NCBI GenBank assembly: GCA_030295235.1
Contig: AP026148.1
Coordinates: 248,001-312,000, forward strand
Length of the DNA: 64,000 nt
Reading direction: 5' to 3'
Source: Fistulifera solaris
Lineage: Eukaryota
Part shown: piece after piece, positions 36,766 through 45,168 of the stretch
How the letters are laid out: each line of letters begins with the position of its first letter
How positions within the stretch are numbered: position 1 is the stretch's first letter
Position numbers and translations under genes: made by a program
Notes under the pieces: generated by a model
What the model saw: only the letters and a program-made list of their open reading frames with translations
What the model was told of the DNA's origin: nothing
Database searches by the model: none

Positions 36766-37200
36766 ATGTCGTACGATACACCTGAAGCGTTCCAACCAGT
36801 CCCCGAGTCGAAATTAACACCAGAACTAAAAGCAAAGTTCCGTGCATTGTGGAAAGAGATCTACGAGTTTTGACGATATTTATGGTCGTTACGTCCTGAG
36901 CTTCGATGAGAAGGTCGCAATCTTACACCAGCACATTACGGAAGAGGTCACGTCATCCCATTTTGGCTAGAGCTATTTACAACGAAAGAGTCGTATGGTC
37001 GCTTCTGGGAGTCGCTTGCCAAAGAACTGACATGGATTGTCGGGAGATCATTCAATTTCTCATTGAGAAAAACCCACACGCACTCCTGTTGGCTTCGGAA
37101 GATTCCTTTCGTCGCAGCAAGGCACCCCTTCGCGCGATGGTAAAGAATGCAAATTGCTTGATCTTCCCGTGGATTGCAGAGCATTATCTGTGGGTGCTCT
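36766..37200 (+). pseudogene. Truncated, frameshifted paralog of 38110-39363
   Basis: MSYDTPEAFQPVPESKLT, HPIL, SLLGVAC and NPHALL match the neighbour. Early stop at 36871; homology ends near 37200. Confidence 0.75.
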
Positions 37201-37650
37201 TTATTCCAGCATGCTCTTTATCAACACACACCACCTTATTTGAAAATGATGAATCTCTGATGACTAATGTAGTCATTTTGATGTCTCGTTGGTCGAATGC
37301 AGATACTAAACCACCTCATTAGGCTAGTTACTGCCTGAAAACACTAGTTGCGTTTTCAGTTTTATCCTTTTGAGTGACTCTGTTCATGACTGAAATGCAG
37401 TCATGTGGAAATATTTGTCTATTAAACTTGGACCATGGGCTTGTCGTTTCGATTCATACTTGGACGATCCACACGCATTTAGGAGTGCCTTGCAAATGCT
37501 GCTGACTGCATTGTCTTAAAGAAAAATGCAACACAGCAAGCGTGCACCAAGCACAAAGAGCAGCGATGAACAATAGGATGAAAATCCAACAAATCTAATA
37601 CGAAAGACGAGACCTCCGGTTTATTCGAAGTTCAAGATCTAATTGTAATA

Positions 37651-38109: not shown

Positions 38110-39363
38110 ATGTTGTACGAAACACCTGAATCCTTCCAGCCAGTTCCCGAGACGGAACTGACAGAAGAATTGAAAATGAGGTTTCGTTTGCTGTGCCGCG
38201 AAATTTCTGTCCTTTATAAATTTTCGGGGGACATGGCAAATTTCATGGGGATCCTGCATCAGCTCATCACCGAACAGATCAAGGCGCATCCCATCCTTGT
38301 CAGAGTCATCACGACAGAAGCGAACACACTATCACTTCTGGGAGTGGCCTGCAAACATGCGGGTGCCCATTTTCAGGAAACGATTCGGTTTCTTATTGAC
38401 AATAATCCGCATGCCCTTTTGTGGGCGCCTTCGGTCCATGAATCACCCATTCACACACTGGTTTCGAATGGGAACTTTGCAATAATACCTTGGATTATGG
38501 AGAGGTATCCATGGGTGTCGCAGCATCAACTGTACGGAGGGAAACCGCCTCATATCGAAATGATGAAGCATTATGTTTGTGGTCGATGCGATCTGGAAGC
38601 AATTCGAAAAGTCTACCAGCTCTATCCCCAGGGGCTTCGAGAGAGAGAAGGAACAGGTTTTACCAGCAGGTACCCCTTGTTGATGAGTGTGGAAGGTTAT
38701 TGCGAACCAGATGCGGACTTTTTTATTTGGATGGCGGAACAATATCCCGAGGCAGTGTATGACGGAGTTCCGGGTTTTACGATTCTGCATCGTCTTTGCT
38801 CGTTGATGGCCCAGACAGAACGTCGAGGCGTACTCAACAAGTGCACACCAAATATGGCCAAAATTTGCCGTTTTCTAATTACCAAGCATTCGTCCCTTGT
38901 CCGTCAAACTACCAACTACGGTAGTTACTTACCGATTCACAAGCTGGCACATCGCTGCGACCGTCCCCTGGTGCGCGAGATGGTGATTCTATTGTTGAGA
39001 GCGTACCCTGAATGCGTACAAGTCGTCGCCGGCGACTCGCATCCCGCGCTGGCTACGGTCTCGTTCATTCGGCAAATGCACTCACTTGTATTGGAGGAAG
39101 TAGCGATTGAGGAGGAAATCATGACGCTGGAGAAGAATGCGCGAAATATGAACACGGCTGCAGTATTTTCGACCGATCCCATACGGTTCGGTTCTCTCTC
39201 GGAAGTCTTTTCCGCATGGGCGAACCAACGAATCGCTGATGTTTTGCTGCCACGGAGGCATCAAATCCAAGTACAGCTTGAGGATAACTACCGCCCTCTT
39301 GAAAAGAACGACGTTGATGAGTTAGCTGCGGAGTTAAATGATCGGGAACTGTTAGGACATTAG
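38110..39363 (+). CDS. Lineage-specific ankyrin-like repeat protein
   Basis: Repeated SPIH/YPLL/TILH/LPIH and (Y)PE-type motifs followed by a coiled-coil-like tail. Confidence 0.75.
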   Translation: MLYETPESFQPVPETELTEELKMRFRLLCREISVLYKFSGDMANFMGILHQLITEQIKAHPILVRVITTEANTLSLLGVACKHAGAHFQETIRFLIDNNPHALLWAPSVHESPIHTLVSNGNFAIIPWIMERYPWVSQHQLYGGKPPHIEMMKHYVCGRCDLEAIRKVYQLYPQGLREREGTGFTSRYPLLMSVEGYCEPDADFFIWMAEQYPEAVYDGVPGFTILHRLCSLMAQTERRGVLNKCTPNMAKICRFLITKHSSLVRQTTNYGSYLPIHKLAHRCDRPLVREMVILLLRAYPECVQVVAGDSHPALATVSFIRQMHSLVLEEVAIEEEIMTLEKNARNMNTAAVFSTDPIRFGSLSEVFSAWANQRIADVLLPRRHQIQVQLEDNYRPLEKNDVDELAAELNDRELLGH

Positions 39364-39422
39364 AATGGTTTCCAAAATGTGAGGGTGAATAATTGTGGAA
39401 TAATAGGTTACTTGTACGTGCG

Positions 39423-39816
39423 TGTCAGATTGAGGGTCTGGACGTCAATCAGGGTGGCTTATGTATCATGGATCGGGGTAGAAATACGACGTGATTGGGA
39501 TGGCTCTGTGGTTCGATTCCACAGTACGTTAGTATTTTAACATGGTAACGTGCAGGGTTCGAACCCGCGCGGAGTGCGTTTGTTGCCGACTCCTGAGAAG
39601 CCGGGAGGATAAAAGAACAGGGCTGGAAGCGGTCTCAAGTGAGGAGGCTGAAGGGCATAAACAGTACGGATCATGATAGTATAAGGCCAGGGAGGATGTC
39701 AGATTGAGGGTCTGGACGTCAATCAGGGTGGCTTATGTATCATGGATCGGGGTAGAAATACGACGTGATTGGGATGGCTCTGTGGTTCGATTCCACAGTA
39801 CGTTAGTATTTTAACA
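39423..39816 (+). mobile_element. TRIM (miniature non-autonomous LTR retrotransposon) with tRNA-like LTRs
   Basis: Identical 120-bp TG...CA LTRs at 39423-39542 and 39697-39816. PBS TGGTAACGTGC at 39543. PPT AAGGCCAGGGAGGA at 39683-39696. TSD CGTGCG on both sides. Confidence 0.95.
39455..39538 (+). promoter_or_regulatory. Pol III type-2-like signals in the 5' LTR (weak A box, consensus B box, T4); repeated in the 3' LTR
   Basis: TGGCTTA at 39455, GGTTCGATTCC at 39510-39520 inside a TGTGG/CCACA stem, and TTTT at 39535-39538. Confidence 0.65.
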
Positions 39817-39964
39817 CGTGCGTACCATCGGCGTCCGTGTTTAAATTGAGTGCCGAATTGCGACTGACATCAATTAAAACAAAAAAAATCCGAATCATCA
39901 TCGTCGCATCTGCTGTTGACGCAGAAGCAAACAAAAGTTTTTTCATAAACATTACTTTAGCACA

Positions 39965-40608
39965 ATGAAGCTTAGTCCGTCACTTTGTTTTGCTATCATC
40001 TTGCCCTCCCTTACCCAGGCCTTCTCGCCGAAACATCATGCGGACAAATCCTCCTGGAAGAACGTGTCCACAATCCCCCCTACGGAGACTCTCACGTTTT
40101 GGAGTGCAGCCTTCTGGTCGGTGCTAGCACCAGCAGCCTTCGCCGTATCGGGTGGTGGCTTGGACTTTGCCGGAACTGATATCAGTGGACAAGACTTTTC
40201 GAAAGGAAATTACAAGGGGAAAGATTTCACGCAAGGTGCGTTTGGCAAAGCAATCCGACATTTCATTTACGATTCCCCTAACACTTCTTCCGTGCAGTCA
40301 TTGCAAAGGGAACGAATTTCGCTGGAAGCAATTTACAGGGCTGTCGCTTTTATAAGGCGTATCTTGTCAATACGAATTTCGATGATGCCGATCTGCGCGG
40401 AGCCTCTTTGGAAGATACCAGCATGGATGGTGCCAGTTTGAGAAATACCATGGCAGCTGGAGCCTACTTTTCGGCCAGTATCTTGGATGCGAAAGATCTG
40501 ACGAATGCGGACTTTACGGATGCTCAATTTCCATTGAAAACGTTGCCTCAACTGTGTATGCGCGACGATGTGACAGATATAACACGCGAATCTCTCATGT
40601 GTCCTTGA
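39965..40608 (+). CDS. Pentapeptide-repeat protein, probably thylakoid lumen, 2 exons
   Basis: Signal TQA-FSP, lumenal AAFA leader and ADLRG/ASLED/ADFTD repeats. Intron 40236-40297. Confidence 0.88.
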
Positions 40609-40735
40609 AGAAGGCAATCGCGAGAGAGGACACAAACAATCTTTGTCATTAGAATGATATTTAGCAGCCTAACTCTAAACAATTATTAACTCTCTTATCA
40701 GTACAAGTTCCTCGTGGCCATCATCGTAATAGATT

Positions 40736-43700
40736 TTATTCTAGACCAAAACCTTCACATTCCAGAATCGCACGACCGAGACGATCGCAAAGTTTTTCAT
40801 AATTTGATCCGTAATCGGGTAAAAGCAACGTATTGAAGCAGGTATGAGATGTTGGAAGGTGATCGGAGTCAACACCGGCTCGTTGTACTTTGAATTGCAA
40901 CGATCCGAGTCCCCCAATGGGCGCTTTGGAACTGCCTGTACTAAATTGCAAAAACTTCATCTTGGTATCCAAATCCGCGCTCTTGAGATATTTCCATAGG
41001 TTTTGCACCGCTTCGGACTCTTTTGTGTATCCTCCTTCGTATTCGGCATTTTGCTCCAAGGCGTCGAAGTCTAATTCAGGGGTACCGACCACTAAGAGTT
41101 CAAGTTCCTCGGGGCGAAAAAAGATCTAAGCTGGAAGACTCCATGATGCGCAGCACACCTTTTTGAAAGCATCCCATTGCGGCTGAATACTGTCTACCAG
41201 GAGCCATTTGACATATAGTAACACATATTCCTCCTTGTTGAAACTTGTTACGGGAATATCAGCACCTCCAGGCTTCAGCTCTACTTTCTTTTCTTCTCCA
41301 AGATCCATCCAAGACACCTCGAAAGAAAGACAGAAGATATCTTCGACATCATCGCCATCGTAGTCGAGTAGTTGTTGCATTCCTTTGCGAATTTCAGGAT
41401 CGACTAAATCTTCTAGTCCCAAAGGAAGATCCAATAGTTTTCGGTACACGGCCTGGGGAAAATGGACGTCGAGAAGGACGCCATTGTACAAGCCTAGACC
41501 GAACAAAATCCCGACCAGCTCGTAGCCCTGTTCATCCCACGTGCAATCCGAGTTGAACCAAGTAATATTGTCACCAAATCTTCTCGTCCACATGCTTGAA
41601 TTTACGTCGAATAGCTCATCGCTTACCAGGTGAAAAAATTCTCTCGTCACTCCACCGGCGTCGACACCGTCTTCTCCTTTGAACTTGACCCGAAGTTTCA
41701 TCCGTAGTTCTTTCGGATCTGCTTCCTTTATTTTCGCTAGAGTTTGCTCCAAAAGGTTCTCTCGTTCCACTTCGAGTACATAGAATGGGTCAATCGCGAG
41801 ACCATCCGGTCGAATTTCCACACGGCCACTTTCAGTTGCTGTTTTCATCATATTCACTTGACTTTCTATCAAAAGTAAATCTCGCTTTTTCGATGGAGGG
41901 ATTAAAAAGGGACTCGCACAGATAAGAAAAGGACGCGAAGCTGGGTCTTTGCCGTAAGACTTCAGAGAACGCAAATCGTCGAACAACATTTCCAGCGGCA
42001 TTTTTTCTACGGCTTCGCTATAAAAGTCCTCTGGTGCGGCAATATTAGCACGCTCGGAAGCTCGATGAAGCCATCGCAGTACGGAAACGATGATTGGAAC
42101 GGCTCGACGAGAGACCTTGGTGTGCACCACGCCGTTTTCGTCAATTTCAACATGAAGCGCTTTACCAAGTTGAGAAAGCAATGGTTTTACCAGCATCCGA
42201 ACGAAAAGATCGGATGGATACAAGGTCATCCATACCAACAATGCCTTGAAACCTTCGTACGGAAGTCCTAGGAGCGTCTCGCACAAAGCCATAACACAAC
42301 TACCCCTTGGATCGAAGTCGACACCATGACGGCTATTCAAGTCAAAAAACCGTATATAGTGAAGCAAACACCGAACAGATTCAGGATATATCATTCGCGC
42401 CTGTGATTTCGATAAGCTTTGAAGTCCTTGTTGAATACTTTTCTCTGCAACATCGGCAAGCGACTTTTGTAACTCCATATTCTTGAGTTTCGTAAGCTCC
42501 AAGAATAGATGGTCAAGCTCAGATGGATCAAGGAACAATCCATTGAGCACCGACGGGTATTTGAGTAGCTGTTCGGTTCGATTTACTAGCTCTCGAGAGG
42601 ACGGACTCACGTTGTCTTCTACTTCCATTTCGTTGGCTACTCTTCCGACGAGCTCTTCCAAACTACCAGACACGCCTGTTTCGGGACTTTCCCGCAAAGC
42701 TGAATCGAAATCTACGGAGTATTTCTGGAAACCCTTTTCCGCAGCAATCGCAACATTCTGATCTCCTCCAGCCGTAATGGTTAAAATGTTTTTCCCAGAA
42801 AGAACTTTCTTCAACTCGCCGCTTGTGGTCGCGCCCATCTGCCAAACATCACCAGAATCGTCAAGGAGTAAAGTATTCTCACAACCGGCCTCCGCGGAAA
42901 TGAATCGACCATTCTCAGGGTGGCGGACAATCTCTACGCGGTTGATAATTTCTTTTCCTGATACGCCTAGCTGCCCTTTACTATTGGAACCACATACAAG
43001 TAAGGTTCCGGATCTTGTCACAAGGACCGTGTGATCATTTCCAGCAGCAGCGTGCACCACTGCCACATCGTCGGCCAGTGATATTTTGGAGTTGTTTTCA
43101 GATACCGACCAGTTCGGGAACGGAGTCTTTCCAAGTGGCGTCTCAAGCTGACTTGTCGGCGTAAGAACCGGAACAGGAGAAAGCAGTTCCGTCGGATAGC
43201 CTCTACCGCAGCAACCGGACGTATTCAGGCCCCAAGCATAGGCACTGCCGTGTGCCGTAAGAACGACGGCATGATCTTTTCCGGCTGCGACAGCAGCTAA
43301 CGGTAAGCCCACTAATGCGGGTTGCTCCGCCGGAAGATTGAGACCAAGGTCGCTTTGTTTCAAATTTACGCGATATCCTGCCACCGTTGGGACACCACAC
43401 GCCAATACCGACATGCGTGAAGTCAACACGAGAGTAAATTGATTTCCGCAAGCGACGGAAACTGCTCGTGTGCCTTGTCCGAGAAACATGGCTTTCGGGC
43501 TACACCATTCCTTCAAACAATTATCCTGATCAGATGATCGAAAATGACCTAATTGTCCCTTCTCGTTGCTTCCCCAGGTCAAAACGACTCCCATATCCGT
43601 GATGGCTGCAGTATGATCCCAGCCACAGCTTACATGACGAACGAACGCTGTCCCCAAACATTCCAATTTGGACGGGCGAACTATTTCTGCAATATCACGG

Positions 43701-44941
43701 GAATGCAACGGATCGACAGCACCAGATGTGTTGATTCCACAAGCAAAGACTTCCCCTTGATTGGTGGCATACGCCGAATGATACGGACCGCAGGAGACGG
43801 AAAAAACACCGTTCAGTCGTCCGACCCGACTTTCCGCGGAAACTTTGGAATCTTCCGGGCTTCTCGCCGTCATGTCATCATGCAGTGCACTAGATGCGAG
43901 GGGACCCCATGAATAAACCGCGAATTCAAAGCCCTTCGTCTCCTCTGACTTTGGAACCGCAATCGATCCCGATATGTTCCTTTGTAAGGCCGACAAATTA
44001 CTAATGCTCCTTTTCGGCAGTAACGGTTGGATTTCTGGCTTTACTTGCGAAGTATAAACATCATTTTGTATTGTTTCTTGATCAATTTCCATTTCTGGAT
44101 CATCCGACTCAGCTTCCGTCTGTTCTATGGTAATTTCCTGAATGTACGTGGTCAAAAGCATACTGCTATGCTCGTGCAGAATCATATCATCCCCACCAAA
44201 AATACTGACAGAAAGCCGGCGACTCGCCACCAGGCTACTCGAGCGCCGATACGATCGTGCTCGCGGTGGACGTAAAGCACTGACAGACTCTTCGTCGTCA
44301 TGTTTCTCAGCATGCTCGAACTGCGCCTGCGTTCGTTGCACGAGCAACGACGCCCGTGCCGATTGTCGTACTTGTAAGGTGCTACTGCAACGCAGCATTT
44401 GTAAAGGTATGCGATTCGAATGAGCGAATTCGGCTGTCCGTAGACGTTCGGATAAATCAGACGCACTCGGTAAATGATCCAGACGCTGCCGCAAACTTCC
44501 CAACATGCTATTGACGGACTCAAACATGGCTCTACCGAGGCGTCTCGGGCGATTGAGTCGTTCTTCGATCTCTCTCAAGTCATTGTCAATGTCGCTCAAG
44601 GAGATGTCTGGGTTATTCATGTTATTATTATTGTTGTTGTTTTCATTGTGGTCTGCCATTGTTCTGTAATCGTAAAAATCAGAACAAGATTGCCTTTTTT
44701 CCTTCAAAACAAGTAATAAACCTTCCGTCTCCCTTTTTAATATCTCGCAATCACGCACCACGCACGCACCGTCACTCGTCGTCATTCCGCTCATCCGTTC
44801 GTCATTTGTTGCTGGAGCAAGGAGCTCCGTCAGTGATATCTCGACGACGGACGGACAGGTCCCCGAACAATCTTCGTTCGCTTCCGTCACGGTTCCAGGC
44901 TCCAGGCCTTTTGTCATGCTACTTTTCAGACGATAGTTCAT
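40736..44941 (-). CDS. HERC-type E3 ligase (RCC1 repeats + HECT), frameshift near 41160
   Basis: VSCGWDH and WGSNEKGQLG RCC1 repeats; FKGEDGVDAGGVTREFF; LPTSHTCFN catalytic Cys. The start may be the ATG at 44659. Confidence 0.92.
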
Positions 44942-45168
44942 AAACGCCGACTTTCCTTTCTATTGGAGAGTGGTGTTTGACAGTGTTGTCAAAGAGTCAA
45001 CGAAACACGTCATCAGCCATGACACACATCACCAAACTTCCCCTTCGAAACCAGTTTATTGCTCACAACAAACAAAACATGATTTTTTTTGTTGCCGTTG
45101 TTAGTCCTGGCAATCGCTACAAGTCGCGGGAAGTCTATTGCATTTCAACGAGAAACTAGATATCCAGG

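Follow-up and report, generated by a model that had tools for sequence, protein, structure and literature searches.

The locus and its host

The window, that is, the whole 64-kb stretch of DNA that was analysed, is gene-dense and is without retroelement coding domains among its scanned ORFs. Neither reverse transcriptase, integrase nor gag was found in the 27 ORFs scanned for domains, a set made up of 26 of the 35 ORFs of at least 200 aa and a downstream ORF of 158 aa. For an ORF of TrmE type in the window, NCBI has a protein at 100% identity under the label Fistulifera solaris, which bears out the diatom host that an earlier note on this DNA had proposed. A second protein with the same label is 91% identical to this ORF, and the next named relatives come from other pennate diatoms. 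In abstracts, Fistulifera solaris is called allodiploid or allopolyploid.

The element that is the subject of this analysis is 394 bp in length and lies at 39423-39816 in an intergenic spacer. Upstream, the plus strand carries two ORFs, 36906-37322 and 38110-39363, which have the motifs LLGVAC..., FLI..NPHALL... and PWI.E.Y.WV in common when compared by eye and look like tandem paralogues. The second of these, which encodes 417 aa, has no Pfam match. By features, the Atlas clusters closest to it are those of ankyrin-repeat proteins (top score 0.95); they have 165 features in common with it, short of the 170 that true family members typically share. Downstream lies a large ORF on the minus strand (41126-44959) in which RCC1-like repeats are combined with a HECT domain at the C-terminus, the make-up of a HERC-type ubiquitin ligase. 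The element begins 59 bp past the stop codon of the 417-aa ORF and ends 148 bp upstream of an ATG at 39965, distances that had been given in the same form before and are exact.

Anatomy of the element

Structurally, the element is made up of two LTRs of 120 bp on either side of an interior of 154 bp (Table 1). Both LTRs start with TGTCAG and end with TTAACA. The interior opens with TGG, the beginning of a PBS-like sequence, and closes with a PPT-like purine run. The identical LTRs, the non-coding interior and the PBS-like and PPT-like sequences at the LTR borders had all been described in the earlier note, and each was found to be exact on re-check. A 32-nt LTR pattern has two exact matches in the 64-kb window, against 0 expected, and a blastn-short comparison within the window returned no further copy of the LTR or of the interior, only chance matches of 10-12 nt. 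The longest stop-free stretch over the 394 bp, taken in six frames, is 67 codons, and the element is without protein-coding capacity.

Table 1. Features of the element and its borders, in window coordinates.
Feature	Position	Strand	Remark
5' target-site duplication CGTGCG	39417..39422	+	identical to 39817-39822
5' LTR, 120 bp, TG...CA ends	39423..39542	+	100% identical to 3' LTR
Candidate A box, weak, TGGCT ... TGG	39455..39471	+	TRGCY at LTR 33, YGG at 47, 9-nt gap
Weak 70-nt cloverleaf, 'tRNA-Gln ttg'	39461..39530	+	ARAGORN -ps80 only
A-box-like TGGCTCTGTGG	39501..39511	+	1 mismatch to TRGCNNAGTGG; abuts B box; block shared with X3 contigs starts here
Perfect T-arm hairpin CTGTGG-TTCGATT-CCACAG	39506..39524	+	contains B box
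B box GGTTCGATTCC, full consensus	39510-39520 and 39784-39794	+	one per LTR
Acceptor-3'-strand-like GTACGTTA	39524..39531	+	LTR 102-109, tRNA positions 66-73 counted from T-arm
TTTT run, Pol III terminator-like	39535..39538	+	3 nt past tRNA-like 3' end
Interior, non-coding, 154 bp	39543..39696	+	between LTRs
PBS-like TGGTAACGTGC (11 nt), extended by palindromic B-box match AGGGTTCGAACCC	39543..39566	+	adjoins 5' LTR
Short polypurine tract AGGGAGGA, 8 purines	39689..39696	+	adjoins 3' LTR
3' LTR	39697..39816	+	motifs of 5' LTR repeated 274 nt further on
3' target-site duplication CGTGCG	39817..39822	+	same hexamer as 5' side

The features by which TRIMs are recognised are found here, namely direct repeats with TG...CA ends, a target-site duplication, a polypurine tract and a non-coding length of less than 1000 bp, while multiple copies, solo LTRs and empty sites are found in the contigs of public runs discussed below. 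The anatomy (identical LTRs, TG..CA ends and a 6-bp duplication) and the multi-copy contigs agree with one another and with the initial description of a complete 394-bp TRIM, and there is little doubt that the element is one.

The target site can be reconstructed by joining 39412-39422 to 39823-39826, and the resulting GTACG TG CGTAC is near-palindromic around the duplicated CGTGCG. Integrases frequently prefer near-palindromic target sites.

Copies, empty site and age

Contigs of four public runs were compared with the window segment 38400-40900. These runs are X1 (organism A), X2 (a wetland metagenome), X3 (an RNA library from wastewater, in which carry-over of DNA is possible) and X17 (organism B, under another label). 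Further runs, X4-X16 and X18-X20, had only small shares of sequence words in common with the window, which tell nothing of habitat or range, and a segment that a run leaves uncovered is no sign of absence. In both X1 and X2, the locus 38400-40900 is present in two versions of similar depth. One of these is identical to the window, and the other is about 10% divergent and carries small indels (in one example, 63 differences in 633 nt). In the divergent version, one contig of X1, 1128 nt in length, and one contig of X2 connect 39394 to 39846. Where the window has 554 nt, the contig of X1 has 180 nt, and there is therefore no room in it for a 394-bp element. The short side of this joint is only 22 nt and the spacer has diverged, so the empty site is defined by length rather than by its exact sequence. 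Because one TrmE-type protein carrying the Fistulifera solaris label is 100% identical to the window ORF and the other 91%, the divergent version is read as the locus in the second subgenome, with the site of the element empty.

Depth points to a repeated sequence. In X1, the summed contig depth is 294-455 in the LTR bins, 88-102 in the interior and about 22-45 in the flanks; in X2, it is 202-802 in the LTR bins and 3-26 in the flanks. These depths are sums over contigs and not copy numbers, so the conclusion drawn from them is limited to there being many copies, with more LTRs than interiors. Contigs fitting both LTRs number 20 of 50 in X1 and 32 of 55 in X2. At the LTR borders, the loose contig ends of both runs fall into several distinct sequences, which means that there are further insertion sites or solo LTRs. 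There is a solo LTR in X17, where a 283-nt contig has a 121-nt match to the LTR with 10 differences (about 92% identity) and CACCAT on either side, its own 6-bp duplication.

Single-copy status with no empty site had been named in the earlier note as one finding that would speak against a mobile element, and the contigs reveal the reverse: an LTR that is multi-copy in X1 and X2, a divergent locus that lacks the element and a solo LTR in X17. The same data bear on another possibility: a structure that was never mobile and arose in place by tandem duplication of 274 bp (1.44 units), with tRNA-like motifs in it by chance. The repeat-spacer-repeat geometry, taken alone, is compatible with such a duplication, but the TG..CA ends, the 6-bp flanking duplication and the fact that TGG and the purine run sit precisely where the LTRs meet the interior are not what it would leave behind. 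With the LTR present in many other genomic contexts and a solo LTR flanked by its own duplication, this origin is effectively refuted, and we give it almost no weight.

The window copy is itself a minor variant. At positions 39727 and 39737 every other LTR contig of X1 and X2 that covers them has A, while both window LTRs have G. These private bases are common to the two LTRs, which fits copying from one template. More distant relatives may be represented in X3, where the contigs share only 39501-39561 with the element (51-61 nt, with 6-7 differences) and have unrelated flanks; one X3 contig spans 39524-39769. This hints that the block made up of the B box, the T-run and the PBS is a conserved core in relatives. 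Elsewhere, exact-pattern searches for other copies, for elements with the same PBS or for the gene of the primer tRNA gave 0 matches in two scans of metagenome contigs (one with the LTR 24-mer, one with the PBS 20-mer), three of viral contigs and two of prokaryote genome contigs. One contig of X2 follows the element as far as 39595, interior position 53, and then continues into unrelated sequence; it could belong to a subfamily with another interior, or it could be the leader of an autonomous partner.

The insertion is missing from the locus version that is about 10% divergent, which supports an origin later than the separation of the two subgenomes. The element had also been called very young on the strength of its identical LTRs. 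However, with 0 differences in 120 bp, the divergence between the LTRs could still be as high as about 2.5% (95% bound), and extreme youth is thus possible but is not forced by the data.

A tRNA-like end to the LTR

The claim that each LTR holds a consensus B box stands firmly. All four window matches to GGTTCGANNCC lie inside the element, against 0.59 expected, and none of 100 shuffles reached four. Two of these matches are in the LTRs, and the other two are a single palindromic site in the PBS region that is read on both strands. The B box of the LTR is part of a T-arm, and the sequence around it continues in the manner of a tRNA gene. Counted from the T-arm at the canonical distance, LTR 102-108 takes the place of the acceptor 3' strand and LTR 109 that of the discriminator. 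The T-run that follows has an extra T (TTTTT) in some other copies, as seen in the contigs.

The upstream half of a tRNA-type promoter is far less evident. The earlier note placed a weak A box some 56 nt upstream of the B box, and there is indeed a TGGCT (TRGCY) that starts 55 nt before the B box. However, the TRGCY...YGG pattern to which it belongs has a background of 0.67 per kb per strand in the window, and the candidate in the LTR does not rise above this. A further A-box match, at LTR 25, has three mismatches, and matches of that class turn up 12 times per kb per strand. The best match in sequence, TGGCTCTGTGG, directly adjoins the B box and is therefore unfit for a standard type-2 promoter.

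Searches for a whole tRNA gave a similar picture. Rfam, at E<=10 over 2.3 kb, over 441 nt and over the LTR alone, returned no tRNA. Its only matches from the tRNA clan were partial ones to cyano_tmRNA, one covering a 17-nt T-arm at 7.2 bits with the LTR alone and the other running from the T-arm into the PBS region at 14.2 bits, against a cut-off of 70. We treated the latter as a by-product of the U5-PBS hairpin described below. ARAGORN, with default settings and with -ps, found nothing on the element. With -ps80 it draws a weak cloverleaf at 39461-39530, but as 25 of the 28 matches that this setting gives in the window lie outside the element, that cloverleaf alone is no evidence. A second -ps80 cloverleaf, at 39502-39577, has a 4-base anticodon and straddles the LTR/PBS junction, and it was likewise put down to the U5-PBS hairpin. 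A class II cloverleaf, with a long variable arm and T33 as position 8, was also tried and leaves the acceptor strands unpaired. The suggestion that the spacing of the boxes is that of tRNAs with a long variable arm is accordingly dropped, there being no matching cloverleaf.

The likeness to a tRNA gene is therefore convincing only for the 3' third of the LTR. What survives of the original description of Pol III/tRNA-like LTRs is the T-arm with its B box, followed by the acceptor-like strand and the TTTT; what is not borne out is a full tRNA, absent from the Rfam results and from those of ARAGORN at default, and an A box that stands out from background. On balance, we consider descent of this LTR segment from a tRNA gene to be the better bet.

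Complementarity between the LTR and the PBS

The tRNA-like end of the LTR, here called the LTR module, has a second property. If CCA is added to GTACGTTA (LTR 102-109), the product is complementary to PBS nt 1-11 through 10 Watson-Crick pairs and one G-U pair. Only 104 of 2,000,000 window 8-mers pair equally well with PBS nt 4-11; this comparison was chosen after the data had been seen, so its true significance is lower, yet still clear. LTR 80-109 and interior 4-34 fold together into a single long hairpin of -42.2 kcal/mol (z-score -3.14), with 2 of 200 shuffles as good. The complementarity has its limits. Past nt 11, the PBS has no match to the LTR module, and when the module as a whole is compared with the antisense PBS sequence, the similarity lacks significance (206 of 2000 shuffles reach its score). 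A T-loop does appear if the PBS region is taken as complementary to a tRNA, but the part after this loop is 2 nt short of a canonical tRNA, while the LTR module is of canonical length. The 64-kb window contains no tRNA genes, and four scans of metagenome, viral and prokaryote collections for the PBS or its complement gave 0 matches. One reading of the pairing is that the LTR module may have descended from the tRNA species that primes the element.

It is also conceivable that the element is an ordinary TRIM transcribed by Pol II, whose U5 end has a T-arm-like motif without promoter function. Pairing of this motif with the PBS region, itself antisense to the 3' half of the primer tRNA, would be the reason for its retention, and the resulting U5-PBS hairpin or primer-docking structure would control the start of reverse transcription. 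The long hairpin between LTR 80-109 and interior 4-34 speaks for this, and what the X3 contigs have in common with the element, 39501-39561, corresponds exactly to the U5 end plus the PBS. There is, moreover, no credible A box, and a TTTT would end a Pol III transcript within the 5' LTR. Against this, the motif does more than complement the PBS region: it makes a perfect T-arm by itself and has the complete B-box consensus, and both the acceptor-like strand and the T-run are at the distances of a tRNA gene. Nor is there a TATA box or an AATAAA in the 120-bp LTR when inspected by eye, although such signals are poorly defined in diatoms. We regard transcription by Pol II as a serious but unlikely account of the element.

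Alternatively, the LTR may be the source of the primer. A tRNA-like RNA made from the LTR by Pol III, trimmed at its 3' end and given a CCA, would prime at the element's own PBS, and the element would be independent of cellular tRNA, with promoter, terminator and primer all within a 120-bp LTR. The pairing of LTR 102-109 plus CCA with PBS nt 1-11, matched by so few window 8-mers, speaks in its favour, and the TTTT lies 3 nt past the module, much as in tRNA genes. As the complement of the PBS is 2 nt too short after the T-loop, no ordinary tRNA is an obviously better fit. Still, the PBS beyond nt 11 is unmatched by the module and one of the 11 pairs is a wobble. The 5' half of the module is not tRNA-like, which makes processing and the addition of CCA doubtful. 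A cellular tRNA ending in ...GCACGTTACCA, from a gene ending in ...GCACGTTA with CCA added post-transcriptionally, would serve as an alternative primer. Self-priming of this kind is, in our view, improbable.

Whichever of these readings holds, the pairing between LTR and PBS sets the element apart from Helenus. It also invites comparison with the Tf1/sushi type of self-priming, in which the Tf1 transcript bends back so that its first 11 nt lie on the PBS, where RNase H cleaves them off. The likeness is that a transcript of the element's own LTR is complementary to its own PBS. The difference is that the diatom element pairs 8 nt directly, and reaches 11 only if a separate tRNA-like RNA gains a CCA.

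Comparison with known TRIMs

The most relevant family is Helenus, which the earlier note had named and which does exist. According to the main text of the survey, Helenus elements are TRIMs with tRNA-derived sequence in their LTRs, reported from fungi, six animal phyla and Selaginella, with lengths of 311-1263 bp and target-site duplications of 4 or 5 bp (Kojima 2024, PMC10886601). The same paper proposes the term TRIMp3 for Helenus together with Cassandra and Ajax. The diatom element resembles Helenus in its miniature LTR-PBS-PPT-LTR layout and in its 394 bp, which fall within the Helenus range. Its 120-bp LTR has the length of that of Helenus-1_SMo, and, as with Helenus, the LTR combines a box B GGTTC with an upstream TRGCY, here at background frequency, and is unlikely to give a working tRNA. 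The box B that marks Helenus and TRIMp3 elements is found in each LTR as GGTTCGATTCC.

Several features are different. The host is a diatom, whereas Table 1 of the Helenus paper lists fungi, animals and Selaginella. The target-site duplication is 6 bp rather than 4 or 5 bp, and the tRNA-like end of the LTR is complementary to the PBS, for which the paper reports no Helenus counterpart. The LTR is recognisable only as the 3' part of a tRNA, and tRNA finders fail on it at default settings; on this point the element is set apart from the families of the Helenus main text, and the supplements of that paper (Table S1 and Figures S1-S3) may include similarly partial tRNA parts. For these reasons, we regard the element as a Helenus-like candidate and not as a proven member.

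Cassandra, a TRIM of plants, carries a Pol III promoter and terminator derived from 5S rRNA in its LTRs, and its transcription from the unit in the 5' LTR to the unit in the 3' LTR yields terminal redundancy, as summarised in the introduction of the Helenus paper (PMC10886601). As in Cassandra, the LTR of the diatom element holds a unit resembling a small-RNA gene, with an internal promoter motif and a T-run. Here the motif is of tRNA type, a B box, and the host is not a plant. At E<=10, Rfam found no 5S rRNA in the element, the mark of Cassandra and Ajax, and no hammerhead ribozyme, the mark of retrozymes.

Short non-coding LTR elements have been listed in other stramenopile genomes. The Phatr3 annotation of Phaeodactylum tricornutum counts 27 'putative TRIM/LARD' copies, and a preprint on Ectocarpus subulatus lists TRIM families. 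In the parts of these sources that bear on TRIMs, the entries are pipeline classes whose anatomy is undescribed, and a tRNA-like LTR goes unmentioned. No TRIM with a tRNA-like LTR from a diatom or another stramenopile was found in the literature, with Repbase and most subscription journals outside the scope of that search. The element could be the first of its kind to be described outside fungi, animals and plants.

Proposed mechanism

The reading we prefer, with a probability of roughly 0.6, is that of a TRIM whose tRNA-gene-like LTR end makes it a Helenus-like (TRIMp3-type) candidate, with TFIIIC and Pol III acting on the LTR. The action of TFIIIC and Pol III is predicted from motifs in the DNA. 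These motifs are the T-arm with its B box, the acceptor-like strand and the TTTT, which together resemble the 3' part of a tRNA gene.

The further steps are ones that we infer from the standard cycle of LTR retrotransposons. An autonomous LTR retrotransposon would provide the proteins that package an RNA running from the 5' LTR into the 3' LTR. Next, a primer would anneal to TGGTAACGTGC, the AGGGAGGA tract would prime the plus strand, and integrase would join the TG..CA ends to a 6-bp staggered cut, giving rise to the CGTGCG duplication. The copy described here landed in an intergenic spacer of about 210 bp, and of the two diverged versions of the locus only one received it.

A weak point of a Pol III transcript is its terminator. 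The TTTT inside the 5' LTR, lengthened to TTTTT in some copies, should stop Pol III before it enters the interior unless termination is leaky. The terminator of Cassandra must likewise be leaky if Pol III is to make a full-length template (PMC10886601, introduction). That Pol III makes the template for transposition is thus a tentative proposal, to which we give somewhat less than even odds.

Significance

If the LTR is derived from a tRNA gene, the TRIMs with promoters of small-RNA type (Cassandra, Helenus and Ajax) reach into the stramenopiles, and the case would support a repeated origin of such TRIMs. Every copy that inserts would bring with it a perfect motif for the binding of TFIIIC. 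The complementarity between LTR and PBS poses a question that can be tested, namely whether a retroelement can supply its own primer. There is a practical side as well, in that such elements could pass as tRNA pseudogenes or escape repeat pipelines altogether.

At the locus itself, a spacer of about 155-180 bp that separates two genes was tripled by the insertion, and only in one of the two diverged versions. This makes it a case for asking whether insertions feed unequal expression of the subgenomes in an allodiploid diatom.

Two side observations concern the interior and the DNA just downstream of the element. On the minus strand at 39858-39909, there are weak matches to C/D-box snoRNAs, to SNORD11B at 20.1 bits (E 3.7) against a cut-off of 50 and to snoR77Y at 18.1 bits, with an AUGAUGA motif and a 5-bp terminal stem; far under threshold, they are probably due to chance. 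Within the interior, a TATA-like TATAAGG at 39680-39686, 10 nt before the 3' LTR, could drive read-out transcription toward the gene that starts at 39965.
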